A DNA stretch of 64,000 bases from Escherichia coli (lineage in GTDB: Bacteria; Pseudomonadota; Gammaproteobacteria; Enterobacterales; Enterobacteriaceae): NCBI RefSeq assembly GCF_024502345.1, contig NZ_JALDNN010000001.1; one strand, 5' to 3'. The notes below the pieces were generated by a model. The model was not told the DNA's origin and ran no database searches. It saw only the letters and a program-made list of their open reading frames with translations. Made by a program: the position numbers and the translations under genes. Below are positions 7,921 through 41,165 of this stretch, piece by piece. How positions within the stretch are numbered: the stretch's first letter is position 1; every line of letters starts with the position of its first letter.

Positions 7921-8171
7921 GCGAGCGAATCTTTCGTGCTATTCGAGTTATATTCTGAAATATCCAGCGGATCAAGAAAATTCGTTGGATATTTTTTTTG
8001 CATGGATAAAATTATCGCCTCTAAAGTACGTAATAACAGGGAATGTGATGAAAAAAGTTTTATTACAAAACCATCCTGGGAGCGAGAAGTATTCTTTTAA
8101 TGGCTGGGAAATATTTAATAGTAATTTTGAACGGATGATTAAAGAAAATAAGGCCATGCTGCTTTGTAAGT

Positions 8172-8181
8172 GGGGGGGGGG
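8172..8181. repeat. homopolymeric G10 tract inside ynjI, site of the frameshift
   Basis: Ten consecutive G read directly. G8 or G11 would restore a continuous ynjI frame. Confidence 0.9.
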
Positions 8182-9006
8182 TATTTAACATGTGTTGTCG
8201 CTGTAATGTTTGTATTCGCAGCGATAACATCCAACGGTTTGAATGAAAGAGGCCTGATTACCGCGGGATGCTCATTTCTTTATCTATTAATTATGATGGG
8301 GCTTATTGTTCGGGCCGGTTTTAAAGCAAAAAAAGAACAGCTGCATTATTATCAGGCTAAAGGTATTGAGCCGCTCAGTATCGAGAAATTACAGGCGCTA
8401 CAATTGATCACACCTTATCGATTCTATCATAAGCAATGGTCTGAAACGCTGGAGTTCTGGCCGCGAAAGCCTGAACCTGGCAAAGATACCTTCCAATATC
8501 ATGTGCTTCCTTTTTACTCGATCGATATCATAAGTAAAAGACGCGAGTCTTTAGAGGATCAATGGGGTATCGAAGATAGCGAAAGTTATTGTGCCTTAAT
8601 GGAGCATTTTCTTTCTGGCGACCATGGAGCCAATACCTTTAAAGCAAACATGGAGGAAGCCCCAGAGCAGGTTATCGCCTTGTTGAATAAATTTGCTGTT
8701 TTTCCCTCTGACTATATCTCTGATTGCGCTAATCATAGCTCCGGTAAATCCTCGGCGAAGCTAATATGGGCGGCGGAATTATCATGGATGACCTCGATAT
8801 CAAGCACAGCTTTTCAAAACGGGACAATTGAAGAAGAACTGGCCTGGCATTATATAATGCTTGCTTCTCGAAAGGCGCACGAGTTGTTCGAAAGCGAAGA
8901 AGATTATCAAAAAAATAGTCTAATGGGATTTCTTTACTGGCATATCTGCTGCTATCGCAGAAAGTTAACGGATGCTGAACTTGAAGCGTGTTATCGTTAC
9001 GACAAG

Positions 9007-9014
9007 CAGTTTTG
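9007..9014. repeat. target-site duplication (left copy) of the IS1 insertion
   Basis: cagttttg immediately left of the IS1 GGTGATGCTGCC end, identical to 9783-9790. Possibly 9 bp depending on the G at the boundary. Confidence 0.8.
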
Positions 9015-9069
9015 GGTGATGCTGCCAACTTACTGATTTAGTGTATGATGGTGTTTTTGAGGTGCTCCA

Positions 9070-9345
9070 GTGGCTTCTGTTTCTATCAGCTGTCCCTCCT
9101 GTTCAGCTACTGACGGGGTGGTGCGTAACGGCAAAAGCACCGCCGGACATCAGCGCTATCTCTGCTCTCACTGCCGTAAAACATGGCAACTGCAGTTCAC
9201 TTACACCGCTTCTCAACCCGGTACGCACCAGAAAATCATTGATATGGCCATGAATGGCGTTGGATGCCGGGCAACCGCCCGAATTATGGGCGTTGGCCTC
9301 AACACGATTTTCCGCCATTTAAAAAACTCAGGCCGCAGTCGGTAA
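9070..9345 (+). CDS. insA: IS1 InsA (transposition repressor / N-terminal part of the transposase)
   Basis: 91-aa [43 protein letters not shown]... matches IS1 InsA. Confidence 0.95.
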
Positions 9346-9767
9346 CCTCGCGCATACAGCCGGGCAGTGACGTCATCGTCTGCGCGGAAATGGACGAACA
9401 GTGGGGATACGTCGGGGCTAAATCGCGCCAGCGCTGGCTGTTTTACGCGTATGACAGGCTCCGGAAGACGGTTGTTGCGCACGTATTCGGTGAACGCACT
9501 ATGGCGACGCTGGGGCGTCTTATGAGCCTGCTGTCACCCTTTGACGTGGTGATATGGATGACGGATGGCTGGCCGCTGTATGAATCCCGCCTGAAGGGAA
9601 AGCTGCACGTAATCAGCAAGCGATATACGCAGCGAATTGAGCGGCATAACCTGAATCTGAGGCAGCACCTGGCACGGCTGGGACGGAAGTCGCTGTCGTT
9701 CTCAAAATCGGTGGAGCTGCATGACAAAGTCATCGGGCATTATCTGAACATAAAACACTATCAATAA
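9264..9767 (+). CDS. insB: IS1 InsB reading frame (expressed as the InsAB' transposase by -1 frameshifting)
   Basis: ORF ...[21 protein letters not shown]...[39 protein letters not shown]...; the slippery TTAAAAAACTC motif lies at about 9318-9328. Confidence 0.92.
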
Positions 9768-9782
9768 GTTGGAGTCATTACC

Positions 9783-9790
9783 CAGTTTTG
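9783..9790. repeat. target-site duplication (right copy) of the IS1 insertion
   Basis: cagttttg directly after the IS1 right end. Confidence 0.8.
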
Positions 9791-9876
9791 GGAGCACTAC
9801 AGTAAGAAATGCCGTTGGCCCATAAGAAATGTTCCCTGGGGAGCATCATCCGTTAAATACTCATAAACGCCTGAAA

Positions 9877-12293: not shown

Positions 12294-12914
12294 GTGCTAG
12301 ACCGCCATCTTCATCCCCGGATTAAACCGTTGTTGCATCAGTGCGTGCGGGTTCTTGATAAACCGGGCATTACGCCAGATGGTTTAACATTAGTGGGATT
12401 TGCCATCGGCGTGCTGGCTCTGCCGTTTCTGGCTCTGGGCTGGTATCTGGCGGCGCTAGTCGTCATTTTGTTGAATCGTCTGCTTGATGGTCTGGATGGC
12501 GCACTGGCGCGGCGCAGAGGGCTTACCGACGCGGGCGGATTTCTCGATATTTCTCTCGATTTTCTCTTTTACGCGCTGGTGCCGTTTGGTTTTATTCTTG
12601 CTGCACCGGAGCAAAATGCGCTGGCAGGCGGCTGGCTGCTGTTTGCGTTTATCGGTACGGGCAGCAGTTTTCTCGCTTTTGCTGCGCTGGCGGCGAAACA
12701 TCAGATTGATAATCCCGGTTATGCGCATAAATCGTTTTATTATCTGGGGGGATTAACCGAAGGCACAGAAACGATCTTACTGTTTGTGCTGGGATGTTTA
12801 TTCCCTGCATGGTTTGCGTGGTTTGCGTGGATCTTCGGTGCGTTGTGCTGGATGACGACCTTTACGCGGGTGTGGAGTGGGTATCTGACGCTGAAGTCGT
12901 TCCAGCGTCAGTAA
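12294..12914 (+). CDS. ynjF: CDP-alcohol phosphatidyltransferase family membrane protein
   Basis: 206-aa from the GTG at 12294, 6 nt after AAGGAG; the track start at 12288 abuts the RBS. Contains the DG..AR motif and multiple TM segments. Confidence 0.8.
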   Translation: MLDRHLHPRIKPLLHQCVRVLDKPGITPDGLTLVGFAIGVLALPFLALGWYLAALVVILLNRLLDGLDGALARRRGLTDAGGFLDISLDFLFYALVPFGFILAAPEQNALAGGWLLFAFIGTGSSFLAFAALAAKHQIDNPGYAHKSFYYLGGLTEGTETILLFVLGCLFPAWFAWFAWIFGALCWMTTFTRVWSGYLTLKSFQRQ

Positions 12915-14296: not shown

Positions 14297-14950
14297 TTAT
14301 CGCAGTTTGTTGTAATTTTCTGACCACTGAGCCATATCCAGAACAGAACTATCAGCAGGAACATCCTGGAGATCGTGCGTTACCTGAACGACGGGGAGCG
14401 CCAGTTCGCGAACTTCGCTGAACACCCACTGGCGAAAATTATCGCGCAGAGCCACATCAAGACGGCTGAATGGCTCATCCAGTAGCAACGCTTTTGGCTG
14501 AGCGAGAAGGGCGCGAAGCAGAGCAACGCGCGCTCGCTGACCGCCAGACAAAGTGGCAGGATCCTGATGGAAAGCTCCGTCAAGGCCTGAACGCTCAAGT
14601 GCATCATTCACGGCATTACGTCGGGCATTCCCCTTAAGTGTCGCCGGTAGCGCCAGCAGTAAATTTTGCCCGACACTGAACTGGTCAAATAACAGTACAT
14701 CCTGGAAAAGAATGCCAATATGACGCTGTGCGGTGGGTAGCATGTCAATCCGTTGCTCATTGAGCCATAGCTCACCTGTACAAGAAAACTGTCCAGCCAG
14801 TGCACCAATCATCCATGAAAACAGAGTGGATTTTCCACAGCCAGACGGACCCATTAACGTGACAATGTCACCTTTATCCACCGTAAAGTTAACGTTTGTC
14901 AGCAAGCGGCTTTCTGGTAAACGTAGCGAAACATTTTTCACGCAGAGCAT
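14297..14950 (-). CDS. ynjD: ABC transporter ATP-binding protein
   Basis: 217-aa MLCVKNVSL...GPSGCGKST...LSGGQRARVALLRAL...LLLDEP (Walker A, signature, Walker B). Its start overlaps the ynjC stop by 1 nt. Confidence 0.9.
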   Translation of the reverse strand: MLCVKNVSLRLPESRLLTNVNFTVDKGDIVTLMGPSGCGKSTLFSWMIGALAGQFSCTGELWLNEQRIDMLPTAQRHIGILFQDVLLFDQFSVGQNLLLALPATLKGNARRNAVNDALERSGLDGAFHQDPATLSGGQRARVALLRALLAQPKALLLDEPFSRLDVALRDNFRQWVFSEVRELALPVVQVTHDLQDVPADSSVLDMAQWSENYNKLR

Positions 14951-16485
14951 TAGCGGAGTCCTTGTCTGACATAACCTACCCATTTTGCGACTAACGCGGT
15001 CAGGGCAAAAATAGTAAGCGGTAATAGCAGTTGCCATAAAGCCTGGGCGGCGAGAATACCGTTGCTGCCGCCGCTGCTTAATGCCACCGCCTCAGTGGTG
15101 AGCGTCGGAAAACGCCCCGCGCCCAGCCACAGCGTCGGCATATACTGCGCAATACTGACTGAAAATCCCACCGCGAAGGCAATCAGCGTAGGGCGTAGCA
15201 TAAGCGGACATTTCACGTAAAAGAAGATTTTGGCCCGCGACCAGCCCAGTGTTTGTGCAATCAAAATTAACCGTGAATCAATGCGCTGCCAGGCGGGTTG
15301 CAGGATAAACAGCATCCACGGCATTACCCACAGCAGATGCCCCCAGACCACCGCCGTCCAGCTTCCATCCATGTTCAGCCATAGCGCCAGCGTGTACTGG
15401 CCCGCCACCAGCTGCAGTGCCGGTAATAAAATGGGCAACCATAGCCACAACTGGCGACGCTGTGGCCCCCATTCCAGCCACAGCAGTAACAGGAGCCAAG
15501 CGATGAATGTCGCCACCAGCCCCATTGTCAGGCTGTTGATGAGCGCTTCACTATTGATCGTCGACTGATCCGCGAGGATCGCCAGCAGAACCACACACAG
15601 CACACCGGTCAAGGGTAAAAAACTCGCCAGCGTAATGCCTGGCAATAAAGGCGTGGCAGGCTTACGAACGCCATCTACGCGGGGAATAGTACGCCGCCAG
15701 GTACACCATAGCAGATAGCCCAGCAAAACGTAGGCGGCGAGTAACAACATCAGCAGCAGGCTGGCGAGTGCGCCTTTCGTTTGTTGATCGGCGTCGCCCT
15801 GAGTTAACCACTGCCAGCTAATTACTGCCAGCGTCGGTGGATTACCTGGCCCAAGAATAATCGCCACATCCACGACCGACAGCGACCAGGCAACAATCGC
15901 CAGCATCGCCATTGCCAGCGCAGGCGCGACGGAGGGCAACAGCAGCCAGTTCAGGCATTGCCAGCGGCTGTAGCCCAGCGAATCCAGCACGATGACTTGC
16001 TGTAAAAGCCGTTTTTCACTCAATACCGCTGCTAAGATCCACAGCAGAAATGCGCTTTCTTTCACCGCCAGCGTGAAGCCCAGCCCAATACCCAATTTGT
16101 CCATTGGCGGAGTGAAATACGGGAAATAGTCATAAAGCAGCCCTCCGTCAGCAAAGAGCAGAAGGGCGCTGGTGGCAAAAGCCACATGGGGAATGGCGAG
16201 CAGCCACGGCAGACGGGTGCACATACGCTGCCATTTCGGCCCAGGCCACAGCGCCACAATCACCAGCAGGGCAATCAACAACGCCCCGACCGCCGCGATG
16301 GTTGTCGACACCAGCGTTGCCAGTAATGCCTGCGGTAACTGTGGATCGGCAAATAACGCCTGCCAGTGTGTCAACGACAAAGCAGGCGATATCAGCGTGA
16401 GAGCTGCCGGGATCAGCGGTGCATAAATCACCGCCACCATCGCCCACAGCAAAAAGATTAATGCGTACCGTAACGGTGTAGCCAT
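14950..16485 (-). CDS. ynjC: ABC transporter permease with two fused permease domains
   Basis: 511-aa highly hydrophobic product MATPLRYALIFLLWAMVAV... Confidence 0.9.
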   Translation of the reverse strand: MATPLRYALIFLLWAMVAVIYAPLIPAALTLISPALSLTHWQALFADPQLPQALLATLVSTTIAAVGALLIALLVIVALWPGPKWQRMCTRLPWLLAIPHVAFATSALLLFADGGLLYDYFPYFTPPMDKLGIGLGFTLAVKESAFLLWILAAVLSEKRLLQQVIVLDSLGYSRWQCLNWLLLPSVAPALAMAMLAIVAWSLSVVDVAIILGPGNPPTLAVISWQWLTQGDADQQTKGALASLLLMLLLAAYVLLGYLLWCTWRRTIPRVDGVRKPATPLLPGITLASFLPLTGVLCVVLLAILADQSTINSEALINSLTMGLVATFIAWLLLLLWLEWGPQRRQLWLWLPILLPALQLVAGQYTLALWLNMDGSWTAVVWGHLLWVMPWMLFILQPAWQRIDSRLILIAQTLGWSRAKIFFYVKCPLMLRPTLIAFAVGFSVSIAQYMPTLWLGAGRFPTLTTEAVALSSGGSNGILAAQALWQLLLPLTIFALTALVAKWVGYVRQGLR

Positions 16486-17624
16486 TCTTGTTCCAGCGCA
16501 TTTACCCAACCTGCGTGCGGTTCAGCCAGTACCGGCGGCAGATCTTGCGGCATTCTTGATTGCAATGTTTCGCGCTGCCCATCAGGCAGTTTTTGCGGAT
16601 CGAGAACAGAAGGATCGCCCCAGACAGCGGGATCTGCTTTACGCAATTGCGCATCGGGTGAGAGCAAGAAATTGGCAACTACCTTCGCCGCAGCACTGGC
16701 ATTCGCGTTGGCAGGAATGGTGACGAAATGCACGTTGCCAATCGTCCCCTCGCGAAAGCCAAAACTGTAACTGCTTGCAGGCAAATCGCCGCTGGCGATT
16801 TTTTGCTGCGCATGCGCGGGGTTAAAGGTCAGCGACAGGCGCAATGTGCCGGCTTTCAGCAGAGCATCCATCCGCGCGGGCGAAGGCGGGAAATCCTTTC
16901 CTTCGCGCCACAAATACGGATGCAGCGCATCAAGATATTGCCACAAGGGAGCAGTGACGCGGGCGAAAGTCGCATCGTCCGGCGCTTCTTTTAATGCGGC
17001 GGGATCGGCCGTCAGCATAATCAGCAACTGTTCAAGAAACGCCGTGCCGGTAAAGTCCGGTGGGCGCGGATAGGTAACCGTGCCGGGATTGGCTTTAGCA
17101 AACTCCAGTAAGGCTTGCGGCGTTTGTGGTGGCTGTGGCGTAACATCGCGGCGGGCGATAAATGTCAGTTGTGCGCCCCCCCAGGGCGATTCAGCCCCTT
17201 CTGTAGGCACTGAAAAATCTTCCCGCACCGGCAGCTGTGTGTCGACATAGCGCCAGTTGGGCAGAGTCTCTGCCCAGTCGGTTTGCAGTAAATTGGCCTC
17301 TTTTAAGGTGCGGAAGTTTTCGCCGTTCACCCAGAGTAGATCCACCGAGCCGCCCGTTTTACGTCCGGCTGCGGCTTCGGTCTGAATGCGCTTCACCGCG
17401 TCTGCGGCATCCGCCAGACGGACAATCTTCAGGTTTATAGCGTAATGGGTTTTCATCTCGCCGCTCACCCAGTCGAGATAGCGGTTAATTGCGGTATCGC
17501 CGCCCCAGGCGTTAAACCAGACGGTTTGCCCTTTGGCCTCATTTTTAATTTCTTGCCAGTCACTGGCATATGTTGCCAGAGAAAACAGCGATAACAATCC
17601 CAGCAACCACCCACAATGGCGCAT
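16458..17624 (-). CDS. ynjB: ABC transporter periplasmic substrate-binding protein
   Basis: 388-aa product with a signal peptide (MRHCGWLLGLLSLFSLATYA); overlaps the ynjC start. Confidence 0.88.
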   Translation of the reverse strand: MRHCGWLLGLLSLFSLATYASDWQEIKNEAKGQTVWFNAWGGDTAINRYLDWVSGEMKTHYAINLKIVRLADAADAVKRIQTEAAAGRKTGGSVDLLWVNGENFRTLKEANLLQTDWAETLPNWRYVDTQLPVREDFSVPTEGAESPWGGAQLTFIARRDVTPQPPQTPQALLEFAKANPGTVTYPRPPDFTGTAFLEQLLIMLTADPAALKEAPDDATFARVTAPLWQYLDALHPYLWREGKDFPPSPARMDALLKAGTLRLSLTFNPAHAQQKIASGDLPASSYSFGFREGTIGNVHFVTIPANANASAAAKVVANFLLSPDAQLRKADPAVWGDPSVLDPQKLPDGQRETLQSRMPQDLPPVLAEPHAGWVNALEQEWLHRYGTH

Positions 17625-17633
17625 CATCTCTCC

Positions 17634-18182
17634 TTAAGAACGTTTTTCCGGAATACGGCACAGTCCCTGAGCGGGAATGTCCATGGCAGAATTAAAACGA
17701 GCCGACAGGTTTTGCAGGCCGATCAATGCCGTCAGTTCGGTGAGCGCCTGAGCGTCAAAATGCGCAGCCAGTCGGGTACGCAGGGCATCATCGACCGTTG
17801 GCGGCGTTACGCTTGCGGCTTCGGCGTACTCCAGCGCCAGCCGTTCTTCATCGCTAAAGAGCGGGCTTTGCCGCCAGTCAGCCACTGCCAGCAGTTTATC
17901 GCTGCTGCCGGTGCGCTCGGCGACTTTCATACTGGTGATATCCACACAAAACTCACACAGGCACATTTGCGCAATGCGCGCGCTGACAAGCGATCGTACT
18001 ACCGGATCGAGCGGTGAGCGTTTGCGCTCCAGCCAGCCAACAAACATCGACACCAGATAAAAGATAAACGGGATCCGCCCCCACCAGCGAATGGGGCTTA
18101 GCACCTCGCCGTAATGGCGACGATGCAGCCACGCCTGCGGACGTAAAATGAAAGGAATTTTGCTAAGCGGCGGTAAACCCAT
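17634..18182 (-). CDS. ynjA: AhpD-like / carboxymuconolactone decarboxylase family protein
   Basis: 182-aa ORF; its start overlaps the ydjZ stop by 1 nt (TGATG arrangement). Confidence 0.85.
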   Translation of the reverse strand: MGLPPLSKIPFILRPQAWLHRRHYGEVLSPIRWWGRIPFIFYLVSMFVGWLERKRSPLDPVVRSLVSARIAQMCLCEFCVDITSMKVAERTGSSDKLLAVADWRQSPLFSDEERLALEYAEAASVTPPTVDDALRTRLAAHFDAQALTELTALIGLQNLSARFNSAMDIPAQGLCRIPEKRS

Positions 18183-18889
18183 CAGGCATTCCTCTTCTGG
18201 CGCTCAAGCCATATTTTCTTCGCCATAAAAATCACCACGGTCAGGGCAAACAGAATAAACAGTCCGGTGACAAACCAGAAGGTACCGCCTGTTAACATGC
18301 TGCCCGCCCAGGAATAAACAATAGTCGCCGGTAACTGACCAAGCCCGGTGGCGATAAAAAACGAGCGAAAACGTATTGAAGTCAAACCGGCAGCATAGCT
18401 GATTGGATCGAAAGGGACAAAAGGCAATAACCGACAGACCAGGATGGTGTGTTTGCCGTAGCGAGTGAAAAAGCCGTCCATACTGTCAAGTACGGTTTTG
18501 CCGGTTAATTTTTCCACCACTTCGCGGCCCATCACTCTGGCGATAAAAAAGCACAGTGCCGCGCCGGCCATCGAACTGGTCCACGACAGCAAGCCGCCCC
18601 AGAACGCGCCAAACAGCGACGCATTGGCAAAGGTGATCAAAAACGCAGGTAGCGGTGCAGCAATGGCCTGTAAAATCATCAACAAGAACGAGACAACTGC
18701 CGCCAGTGCGCCGTAAGACTGAATAAAGCGTTCTATACCCTGTTGGTCCACGGCGGCAAACGCCGCAACGCTGCGATTGATAAACTCATGGACGCCGGGA
18801 AGCAGCGCCCATGCCAGCAGCATAGCGAACAACAGGATGATGAGGGTTATACGGTAGTACCAGATTTTACGCGATTGCATCTTCATCAT
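18182..18889 (-). CDS. ydjZ: DedA / TVP38-TMEM64 family inner membrane protein
   Basis: 235-aa polytopic membrane protein MMKMQSRKIWYYRITLIILLFAMLLAWALL... Confidence 0.88.
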   Translation of the reverse strand: MMKMQSRKIWYYRITLIILLFAMLLAWALLPGVHEFINRSVAAFAAVDQQGIERFIQSYGALAAVVSFLLMILQAIAAPLPAFLITFANASLFGAFWGGLLSWTSSMAGAALCFFIARVMGREVVEKLTGKTVLDSMDGFFTRYGKHTILVCRLLPFVPFDPISYAAGLTSIRFRSFFIATGLGQLPATIVYSWAGSMLTGGTFWFVTGLFILFALTVVIFMAKKIWLERQKRNA

Positions 18890-18903: not shown

Positions 18904-19581
18904 TTATTCGGTGATTTTAAAGGTAACCGTTGCCAGCGTGTTATCCGCCGGGAGAACCGAGGCATTGCCTTTGAATTTAACTTCACCTCGTTTTTCAACC
19001 GCACCATAAGTGTATGTTGCATTGCTGACGATGCCGACCGGGCAGCTATCCAGACACACCAGGCAACCCGTTTTCTTCTCTTCTGCTGCCGTTAAATTAC
19101 CGCCAAAGCGCATGTCCAGTTTCTTGCCATTACTGTCAACAATCACTTCATCGAAGGAATACGTTTTTGCCGCCCCTTGCCAGTTGACCGAAATATCCAG
19201 TTTGCTGCCCGTGACATGAGTCGTTTCTTTATTATCCATCGTCATGTTTTCGCCCGGCGTACCACCTGCCTCTTTCAGGGCTTCATAAAATGCTTTCGGG
19301 GTCGCATAACCCATAAACAGCGATTTATGTCCGTTGGAGCCATCTTTAAACACAATACCGTGACGAGTGTCGTCGGTGAGGAAACGACCATTAATTTGCA
19401 CCAGCATGGTTACCGTATGGTTATTGGCATCGACGCGCAGCGGTTGGCTGTTCGAAAGTCCGTCGTATTCCACTTTTGCCGCCGTATTCTCTTTTTGATC
19501 GCAGCCGCTAAGCCCAGCAACAGCCAGTAAGCAGAGTGCAGTCAGTCCTTTTTTCCATGACACTGAATAATGTTGCAACAT
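18904..19581 (-). CDS. ydjY: lipoprotein of unknown function
   Basis: 225-aa MLQHYSVSWKKGLTALCLLAVAGLSGC... (lipobox LSGC) with a C-terminal CLVCLDSCPVG Cys cluster. Track ORF is longer; start set at the ATG at 19579-19581. Confidence 0.85.
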   Translation of the reverse strand: MLQHYSVSWKKGLTALCLLAVAGLSGCDQKENTAAKVEYDGLSNSQPLRVDANNHTVTMLVQINGRFLTDDTRHGIVFKDGSNGHKSLFMGYATPKAFYEALKEAGGTPGENMTMDNKETTHVTGSKLDISVNWQGAAKTYSFDEVIVDSNGKKLDMRFGGNLTAAEEKKTGCLVCLDSCPVGIVSNATYTYGAVEKRGEVKFKGNASVLPADNTLATVTFKITE

Positions 19582-19585
19582 CGTT

Positions 19586-20295
19586 CTATCCTTCATTTTT
19601 TGGGTGAGTAAGTGGGTTGCGGCGCGAAGCAGACAGATCCACATGTTTGTGTCGGGCGTAGAGTTTGGCGAGCTGGACGAGAATAAACAGCGCCAGGCCC
19701 GCCAGACAGAGTTGTAAAATAAAGCGCAGCGTAATGCCTTCATTGGCGAGATCGCTTGCCATCACGGTATAAATAACAATACCGGGCAGGGTCGTGAGTG
19801 CCGAAATAAGGGTATAAGGCCAGAAGGCGATTGTGGTTAATCCGTAAGCGTAATTTTGAATATTGTAAGGAAACAACGGGATTAAGCGGGTCAGAATAAG
19901 AAAATCAATACCGTTACGCGCGATGCCTTTTTCAATGGCCTGGAAGGTATGGCTATGGCCAACGTATTTCAGCAGTAAATCACGTCCCAGCCAGCGCGCC
20001 AGCAGGAATGAGCACGAGGAGGCCAGCGTGGCGGCAATTAATGAGAGTAGTGTTCCTAAGAGCGGCCAAAAACTATTCCTCCAGCGATCACCAGTATGCT
20101 TCCTGGTAACAGAAAGAGGGTGGCAATGATGAATAACAGAATATAGAGGCTATAACCGAACAATCCGCTCTGGCGGATGAGTGTCTGTAAGTGGGGTAAA
20201 TCGGTGAGCAGATCGAATAAACCGAAAGCGTGGATAGCGTAAATGACCAGCGCAAAAATAAGACAGGCAAAAAGAAATTTACGCTCAGCGTTCAT
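19586..20295 (-). pseudogene. ydjX: DedA / TVP38-TMEM64 family membrane protein gene with a 1-bp deletion frameshift
   Basis: Upstream frame ends ...ILVIAGGIVFGRS* at 20056. The downstream frame reads ...WPLLGTLLSLIAATLASSCSFLLARWLGRDLLLKYVGHSHTFQAIEKG...LFPYNIQNYAYG... to 19586. A single C missing from GGCC(C)G at about 20063-20066 joins them into a 236-aa protein. Confidence 0.8.
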
Positions 20296-20461
20296 CGTGG
20301 AGTTTCCTATATCAAACTTGATAATAGAGAAGTGGTCAGACAACTAAAAACGCAGAGACGGTATAACAAAGGACGGCAGGCAACAAATCATTACTGACAG
20401 TTTGTTGATTTTTCTCAAGGTTAATTCTCCTGACCCAGTTTGAGCCAGGAGAGCTGTTAAA

Positions 20462-21268
20462 TTAGCGGCGGAAGGTCGCCCAGACGGGGGCGTGATCGGA
20501 CGGTTTTTCCATGCTGCGGATTTCATAGTCGATGCCGGTTTCTACGCAACATTCTGCCAGCGGTTGGCTGGCGAGCAGCAGGTCGATGCGCAGACCACGG
20601 TTATCGTCAAAACCTTTTGAGCGGTAATCAAACCATGAGAAACGATCTGCTGTTTGCGGATTCGCATGGCGGAAGGTATCGACCAACCCCCAGCTCATCA
20701 GCCTGTCCATCCATTCGCGCTCTTCCGGCAGGAAAGAGCATTTACCGGTACGCAGCCAGCGCTTACGGTTTTCTTCGCCAATGCCAATATCCAGGTCGCC
20801 AGGACTGATATTCATATCGCCCATAATCAGCACCGGATTTTCACGCTTGAGTTCGGTTTCCAGGTAGTTTTGCAGATTCTGATAAAACTGCGCTTTTGCC
20901 GGGAATTTTATCGGATGGTCGCGGCTTTCACCCTGCGGGAAGTAACCGTTGATCACGGTGACATTGCCCAGCGGCGAGGGGATTTCCGCCATAATAATCC
21001 GCCGCTGCGCCTCTTCGTCGTCACCGGGAAAGCCGCGACGCACGGCAATCGGCGTCTCTTTGGTCAGCAGCGCCACGCCATAATGGCCTTTCTGCCCGTG
21101 ATAAAACACGTTGTAGCCGAGCTTCGCCACCTCTTCGAGCGGAAACATATCGTCATGAACTTTTGTCTCCTGCAGGCCAATCACATCCGGTTGGTGCTTT
21201 TCGACGATGGCTTTAAGCTGGTGGGGCCTGGCGCGCAGGCCGTTGATATTAAAAGAGACAAATTTCAT
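20462..21268 (-). CDS. xthA: exodeoxyribonuclease III
   Basis: 268-aa [37 protein letters not shown]... Confidence 0.95.
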
Positions 21269-36547: not shown

Positions 36548-37318
<771 letters not shown>

Positions 37319-40360: not shown

Positions 40361-41165
40361 ATGTTTTCTACAAACTTAATACAGAGTAATTATGGTGATT
40401 TAAATATTAAAAGCCTGGCTTTCGAATCTTTTAAAGAAAGGCTTGAGTCTACCATGGCGGCACTCACTTTCTTTATATCAACGGGTCAATGTGACTGCGA
40501 TGAAATAGCAGAGTCGAACTTCAATCGTATGATTGCCTATATGTCTAACATTAACTATGATGCCTCAAAGCCAGGAGCGCCAGCACTTAGTTTTGATACG
40601 TATCTGCAGGACAATGTTAAATATAGAGTGATAATTAATAATCTTTATGGCAGTGAGTTTCGGATAAGAGATGTTAATGAGAATTTTGTTGGGATGGATT
40701 TTACCTGTGAATTCCGACCCGAAAAAATGACGAATTTGATCAATATAAAAAATAGGTTGGTTATTCATTATTTAAGGACTATATACTATGAAAAAAATTA
40801 TATACATCCTGCCGGGAGCATTTTTGCTGCGATTCAAAAAAAATGAGAGTCTCCTAAAGTTTCCTTCGATAATATCAATGCTTAATATCAATCTTCTTTT
40901 TAATCCACTAAATCTTCCGGGAATGGGAAGTGGTGTGCTTGAAGATATTATGAGTATTCCAGATAGTTCACTTAGAAAACGTCTCGGGTATGAGGTTTTA
41001 AGCTTCTCACTACAGGCACATTCATTGAGCCAGGAATGTATTGATAAGTTGGACATTTTTTTCGCTGACGATCTGTTTAAATATGAGTCAGTATGCATCG
41101 CCGCGATGGAACATTTAAAAAGTAAAGCAACGGCCCCTATACAAAACGGACCGTTGCCAGCATAA
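40361..41165 (+). pseudogene. ydjO: AT-rich gene of unknown function, ydjO-like, with a frameshift between two poly-A tracts
   Basis: ORFs 40349-40846 and 40788-41165 overlap in different frames. Removing one A from the A8 run (40836-40843) or the A7 run (40791-40797) gives a single ORF of about 267 aa. Confidence 0.65.

Follow-up and report, generated by a model that had tools for sequence, protein, structure and literature searches.

Is ydjX in this Escherichia coli strain truly inactivated by the loss of a single base, and, if so, what would follow for the encoded protein, for the genes behind it and for the lineage that carries it? The question arises from a window of 64,000 nucleotides, by which we mean the whole stretch of DNA that was analysed. 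In this window, a first-pass annotation had pointed to a 1-bp deletion (GGCCCG to GGCCG) at 20050-20075, to a 236-aa DedA-family protein upon restoration of the base, and to possible polar effects on a tightly packed operon. ydjX lies on the minus strand, with its ATG at 20295 and its native TAG stop at 19586-19588. It is flanked by xthA (20462-21268, minus strand) on one side and by ydjY-ydjZ-ynjA-ynjB-ynjC-ynjD on the other, the same order as in E. coli K-12 but in the opposite direction. With these neighbours (xthA and ydjY) and 98.5% identity to K-12 ydjX, interrupted by one gap, the locus is orthologous to that encoding E. coli YdjX.

Alignment of window positions 19560-20360 to the three closest complete genomes (FDAARGOS_943, FDAARGOS_944 and A30) revealed exactly one gap in ydjX. 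On the minus strand, the window reads ...GTTTTTGG-CCGCTCTTAGG... at this point (GGCCG), while all three genomes have GGCCCG; in a longer form of the same gap, GTTTTTGG-CCGCTC in the window stands against GTTTTTGGCCCGCTC in the three genomes. K-12 MG1655 also has GGCCCG at the site. Seen from the plus strand, the shortened run is the GG at 20064-20065, GGG in the reference strains, and it thus falls inside the interval first given for it. The claimed deletion was borne out by the alignments, and no reference strain combined the same nucleotide string with an intact reading frame. The resulting parts of the gene are as follows.

20064..20065, minus strand: site of the 1-bp deletion, a C run of CC against CCC in the references, as read from the alignments and the sequence
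20056..20295, minus strand: truncated ydjX frame, from the ATG at 20295 through 77 native residues and Arg-Ser to a premature TAG at 20056-20058; 79 aa by translation
19586..20062, minus strand: 3' remainder of ydjX, cut off from its start and equivalent to codons 79-236 in the intact gene; its -1 frame runs open to the native TAG and is free of any further lesion

The deletion falls in the Pro78 codon, changing GGC CCG CTC into GGC CGC TCT TAG, and the broken upstream frame ends in GGIVFGRS followed by the stop at 20056-20058, leaving one third of the protein's length. The downstream frame reads LLGTLLSLIAATLA... through to the native stop; its earliest ATG, GTG or TTG is a TTG at 19876, and there is therefore no useful restart for ydjX. 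With one C put back, the gene encodes a collinear YdjX of 236 aa with four residue differences from the K-12 protein. Because the two halves are collinear with the annotated gene at 98.5-99.8% nucleotide identity (98.5% for K-12 ydjX) and with one gap, the joining of the two frames is, judged by these alignments, no chance effect. Relative to four intact references, then, ydjX carries an indel that is not a multiple of three and that breaks the frame, with a premature TAG two codons later, as in a pseudogene.

The restored 236-aa YdjX matches the Pfam family VTT_dom (PF09335) over residues 63-179 (E = 2.3e-26) and goes by the RefSeq name TVP38/TMEM64 or DedA family protein, in agreement with the family and length originally proposed. 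The VTT domain of YdjX has been modelled as two re-entrant loops and two helices, re-entrant loop 1 being N-terminal (10.1101/2020.12.18.423352), and by its position Pro78 of the GGIVFGPLLG segment would lie in the first re-entrant loop. The truncated product keeps only residues 63-77 of the domain and loses approximately 87% of it; with a stop after residue 77 of a domain spanning 63-179, it would be without the DedA fold. Since the truncation takes most of the VTT/DedA domain (63-179), loss of YdjX function is likely. A different change of the same codon is seen in strain 2018-05-2CC (NZ_AP027877.1), where codon 78 is CTG (Leu) instead of CCG (Pro), a P78L missense in the GGIVFGPLLG segment.

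E. coli has eight DedA paralogues, and when each of them was expressed in B. subtilis, strong undecaprenyl-phosphate recycling was provided by DedA alone (10.1101/2022.02.03.479048). The paralogue most similar to ydjX is ydjZ, which lies two genes downstream and is intact in the window. The loss of ydjX is presumably tolerated because E. coli has these eight paralogues and the closest of them is preserved.

A lesion of this kind invites the suspicion of a homopolymer miscall, by which sequencing or assembly would have dropped one C from a genome with an intact ydjX. Indeed, the lesion is the loss of one base in a homopolymer, and two other broken genes of the window also differ from their counterparts at homopolymers (ynjI, G8 to G10; ydjO, A7 to A8). 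Moreover, the allele was in no complete RefSeq genome: the 801-nt ydjX region was found in 5,353 of the 5,426 complete RefSeq E. coli genomes, and a 71-nt probe across the site had no gap-free match in any of these 5,353, all best matches spanning 72 nt. The run is, however, just three bases long, and the exact 79-aa product is encoded on at least 14 public contigs. Three further, independent NCBI or Logan assemblies share the allele and the haplotype, namely GCA_050022275.1 (0 differences to the window in 6,240 bp), Logan ERR14375843 (0 differences in 3,730 bp) and GCA_001484235.1 (1 SNP in 11,536 bp), although the same isolate may, in principle, have been sequenced again for one or more of them. 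Close relatives with the other state at this site are otherwise only 2-3 SNPs away over 11.5 kb, as would be expected of a true segregating variant, and there are very few indels in the rest of the window. Because three further assemblies of a near-clonal lineage carry the same allele on the same haplotype, we regard the deletion as a true allele, with the same high confidence that we place in our explanation as a whole (see below), and an artefact as very improbable.

An error-ridden assembly was ruled out as well, given that 59 of the 63 K-12 genes that we compared one by one are undisrupted in the window, 57 of them without any gap. Frame-breaking indels among the 63 genes occur only in ydjX, ynjI and ydjO, while selO has a nonsense substitution. 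Similarly, in an alignment of ~43 kb to the 98.6%-identical strain 2018-05-2CC, indels are limited to three small ones in coding sequence and one cluster between genes. The latter, the only non-coding indel cluster in this alignment, consists of insertions of 10, 1 and 2 bp in the sppA-ansA intergenic region (2172-2190).

The other disrupted or divergent genes of the window are of several kinds. ynjI (about 8048-9866, plus strand) is broken twice, by an IS1 insertion and by a poly-G frameshift. The IS1 element (768 bp, 9017-9784) starts with GGTGATGCTGCC, ends with GGAGTCATTACC and is flanked by duplicated CAGTTTTG(G), while the poly-G tract at 8172-8181 is G10 in the window against G8 in both K-12 and strain 2018-05-2CC, and the frame is shifted as a result. 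In ydjO (40361-41165, plus strand), A8 at 40836 replaces the A7 of K-12 and strain 2018-05-2CC and shortens the ORF from 267 to 165 aa; with 94.9% identity to K-12, ydjO also shows unusual divergence. In selO/ydiU (62218-63654, plus strand), a TTG to TAG change at 63565-63567 creates an amber codon at position 450 of 478 and removes 29 residues. Exact matches to the 449-aa SelO product occur on no fewer than 24 public contigs filed under E. coli, and for this reason the SelO truncation is, as far as the labels of those contigs go, a trait of the lineage that is spread more widely than the ydjX frameshift. chbG (36560-37318, plus strand), between neighbours that are 97-99% identical to K-12, reaches only 90.5% identity and contains an in-frame insertion of 9 bp (37022-37030), which points to recombination of a divergent allele. 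Lastly, the arpB region (48501-50370, minus strand) has 1-bp and 29-bp deletions relative to K-12 and a 544-aa ORF at 48736-50370; arpB is an annotated pseudogene in K-12 and may be intact over much of its length in the window strain.

A real deletion could still be harmless to the protein if a programmed -1 ribosomal slip on the GTTTTTG just upstream restored the frame, such that full-length YdjX continued to be made. The T5 run does lie directly 5' of the deletion, where tRNA-Phe could shift back by one base and pair again, and no stop interrupts the -1 frame between this point and the native one. There is, however, no canonical X XXY YYZ heptamer in the zero frame, and every reference strain, including sisters that are 2-3 SNPs away, encodes YdjX in one frame. 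The two-frame arrangement is thus not conserved, the deletion being found in none of the 5,353 complete genomes and in none of the sister assemblies, and we consider such recoding extremely improbable. Nor does the tract resemble a phase-variable homopolymer, typically at least 7 nt long and of varying length among relatives; here it is either CCC or CC, with two states only, the short one being rare.

How old is the deletion? Close sisters of the window are found among the assemblies with exactly the same YnjC protein. Three sister assemblies (L021, L025 and L026) are 2-3 SNPs from the window over 11.5 kb, read GGCCCG and have an uninterrupted 236-aa ydjX, whereas the deletion-carrying assemblies of the window's near-clonal lineage differ from it by 0-1 SNP over 3.7-11.5 kb. 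Since sisters at a distance of only 2-3 SNPs over 11.5 kb still read GGCCCG, the deletion is, on this SNP count, very recent and marks a small sub-clade of one E. coli lineage. The allele can thus be used as a marker of a very young sub-clade. Private homopolymer indels were also seen among the relatives: in L023 (Logan SRR3987614), G8 instead of G7 at the equivalent of window position 17175 splits ynjB into 176 and 186 aa, and in L026 (Logan SRR27009579), C5 instead of C6 at the equivalent of position 12746 truncates ynjF to 153 aa. These may reflect either sporadic decay or errors in the Logan assemblies.

The IS1 element in ynjI gives a second point of reference for the lineage. The contigs of the carrier assemblies and of the sisters L021 and L022 end at window positions ~9710-9730, inside IS1, and the insertion is probably common to the lineage relatives, several of whose short-read contigs end within the element. 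Because the carrier contigs and those of L021 and L022 all stop there, the contig-end coordinates indicate that the IS1 insertion probably predates the ydjX deletion. The IS1 element, the several broken genes and an identity of at most 98.6% to complete E. coli genomes had also raised the suspicion of a Shigella origin, which was ruled out by the exact-match proteins (the 449-aa SelO, YnjC and YdjY), all of them labelled Escherichia coli in public records.

The same missing C was also found on other ydjX haplotypes, at a distance of 17-93 SNPs per 6.2 kb from the window. One of these carrier haplotypes, L012, shows SNPs at distances of 10 and 18 bp from the deletion. It has intact twins, i.e., complete genomes at 99.9% identity in which 1,352 query bases span 1,353, and from which it is set apart by the missing C alone. 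The deletion is the sole ydjX lesion in every carrier, and adding the base back produces an ORF of 236 aa in the window as well as in each of the ten carrier loci. A single old allele spread by descent was ruled out, with carrier haplotypes up to 93 SNPs apart in 6.2 kb and with the intact twins of L012. Because the deletion sits on unrelated haplotypes, one of which has intact twins that differ by one C, the comparison of haplotypes indicates that it is a mutation that arose more than once.

As a control, exact matches were sought for the products that nine further hypothetical homopolymer indels would give on the same protein background. The product of a deletion in the T5 run next to the site occurred on 10 contigs and that of a deletion in the TTT run (nucleotide 181 of ydjX) on 2 contigs, while the products of the remaining seven were absent from public contigs in this exact-product look-up. 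With two of the nine control indels also present (10 and 2 contigs), a uniquely hot site was ruled out. The K-12-haplotype version of the C deletion, encoding the K-12-type protein, was found on 1 contig. The same clusters also hold truncated forms of YdjX labelled S. sonnei (152 aa) and S. flexneri (168 aa on at least 190 contigs and 179 aa on at least 1,000 contigs). Because the same deletion recurs, other sporadic frameshifts exist at comparably low counts and truncations are found among Shigella-labelled entries, ydjX is evidently, as far as public sequences tell, a dispensable gene that is lost repeatedly and collects sporadic low-frequency frameshifts.

Such recurrence could also be read as positively selected inactivation or as a mutational hotspot, in which case loss of ydjX or down-regulation of the operon would be advantageous in some niche, or TTTTTGGCCC would be a preferred target. 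The occurrence of the same deletion on several ydjX haplotypes, one with intact twins differing by that base, fits this reading, as do the version of the allele with a K-12-type protein, the neighbouring T5-run deletion on 10 contigs, the P78L missense in the same codon of strain 2018-05-2CC, and the other truncations among the Shigella-labelled entries. The counts are tiny, however, with about 7-14 contigs among very many E. coli assemblies and none of the 5,353 complete genomes. The detection of two of the nine control indels also argues against anything unique about the site, and the allele is fixed in no lineage beyond a small sub-clade. Such a pattern agrees with a dispensable gene that is hit repeatedly by neutral or mildly deleterious mutations, and we regard selection or a hotspot as unlikely. 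A more specific version, in which TTTTTGGCCC is a recurrent target owing to convergent selected inactivation of YdjX, or to polar down-tuning of an FNR-activated operon in the anaerobic gut, rather than to neutral decay, appears more doubtful still. Nevertheless, the recurrence on several backgrounds leaves some room for site-specific mutational bias or selection as opposed to neutral decay.

We now turn to the genes behind ydjX. The first-pass annotation had named ydjX as the first gene of a ydjXYZ-ynjABCD cluster, and this agrees both with the gene order in the window and with the listing of ydjXYZ-ynjABCD as one FNR-activated operon (PMC3688515). The relevant features are the following.

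20405..20418, minus strand: FNR-like box TTGAGAAAAATCAA in the xthA-ydjX intergenic region, matching 9 of 10 consensus positions
18904..19581, minus strand: ydjY (lipoprotein, 225 aa), intact, with its ATG 4 nt past the native ydjX stop and GAAGGA before the ATG
14297..18889, minus strand: ydjZ (second DedA/VTT paralogue, 235 aa), ynjA, ynjB, ynjC and ynjD, all full length and gap-free relative to K-12

The upstream region between xthA and ydjX is the same as in K-12 except for one SNP, and because of this identity the promoter region of the operon looks intact. A promoter and terminator scan around ydjX returned no promoter-like sites and one weak terminator-like hairpin within the gene. The tight spacing and overlapping stops and starts claimed for the downstream genes are indeed there: in addition to the 4 nt between ydjX and ydjY, ydjZ and ynjA overlap in ATGA, ynjB and ynjC overlap by 28 nt, and ynjC and ynjD overlap in TAATG.

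As a consequence of the premature stop, 474 nt remain untranslated between it and the ydjY ATG at 19581. Within this interval, C is abundant and G scarce at 19910-19781 (C 24-35%, G 10-15%) and again at 19676-19599 (C 41%, G 15%), and the C/G ratio of the two C-rich stretches is 2.2-2.75. Such a C-rich, G-poor composition is typical of Rho loading sites. Because 474 nt with stretches of this composition become untranslated, it is plausible, as judged from the sequence, that the frameshift is polar on the downstream genes. On the other hand, ydjY has its own GAAGGA Shine-Dalgarno sequence, and its translation could be independent of that of ydjX.

Taken together, we propose that the case of ydjX is very probably one of a recent, spontaneous, pseudogenising 1-bp deletion in one sub-clade, in a gene that is dispensable. 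The deletion would most likely have arisen by strand slippage that shortened a run of three C to two and, in one sub-clade of an E. coli lineage, would have turned ydjX into a pseudogene. Translation would end after residue 77 and two foreign residues, with most of the predicted region of two re-entrant loops gone, and the truncated YdjX would almost certainly be non-functional. The cell may tolerate the loss by virtue of its eight DedA paralogues, the closest of which (ydjZ) is intact downstream. Expression of the downstream genes may drop in two ways, either by Rho termination within the 474 untranslated nt, or by loss of the translational coupling of ydjY, whose ATG is 4 nt past the native ydjX stop.

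Seen this way, the window holds an ordinary, routine loss-of-function allele of a dispensable DedA paralogue. Its main consequence is for strain annotation, in that ydjX of this strain and of its sub-clade should be marked as a pseudogene, and it has little importance otherwise. Those who use the strain for work on the DedA family or on the FNR-activated ydjXYZ-ynjABCD operon should nonetheless be aware that the leading gene of the operon is in all likelihood null and that expression of the genes behind it may be reduced. The allele also adds one more data point on the individual dispensability of YdjX in natural E. coli.

Compared with known systems, the window stands closest to the intact versions of the gene. 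K-12 YdjX (b1750, NP_416264.4) and WP_001307832.1 are proteins of the DedA superfamily, TVP38/TMEM64 type, and share with the window the same locus (xthA-ydjX-ydjY-ydjZ-ynjABCD), 98.5-99.8% nucleotide identity and the same VTT domain; unlike them, the window lacks a C in codon 78 and encodes only 77 native residues. The truncated forms of YdjX in Shigella-labelled entries are similar to the window in showing inactivation of ydjX in further E. coli/Shigella lineages, but these truncations lie at other positions. The S. flexneri forms, moreover, are found on very many contigs, while the allele of the window does not extend beyond a small sub-clade within a lineage that bears the label E. coli. 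Finally, the arrangement is reminiscent of classical Rho-dependent polar mutations, with which it shares a premature stop in the first gene of a tight operon and a stretch of untranslated C-rich mRNA before the next gene, the difference being that polarity in the window is a prediction from sequence.
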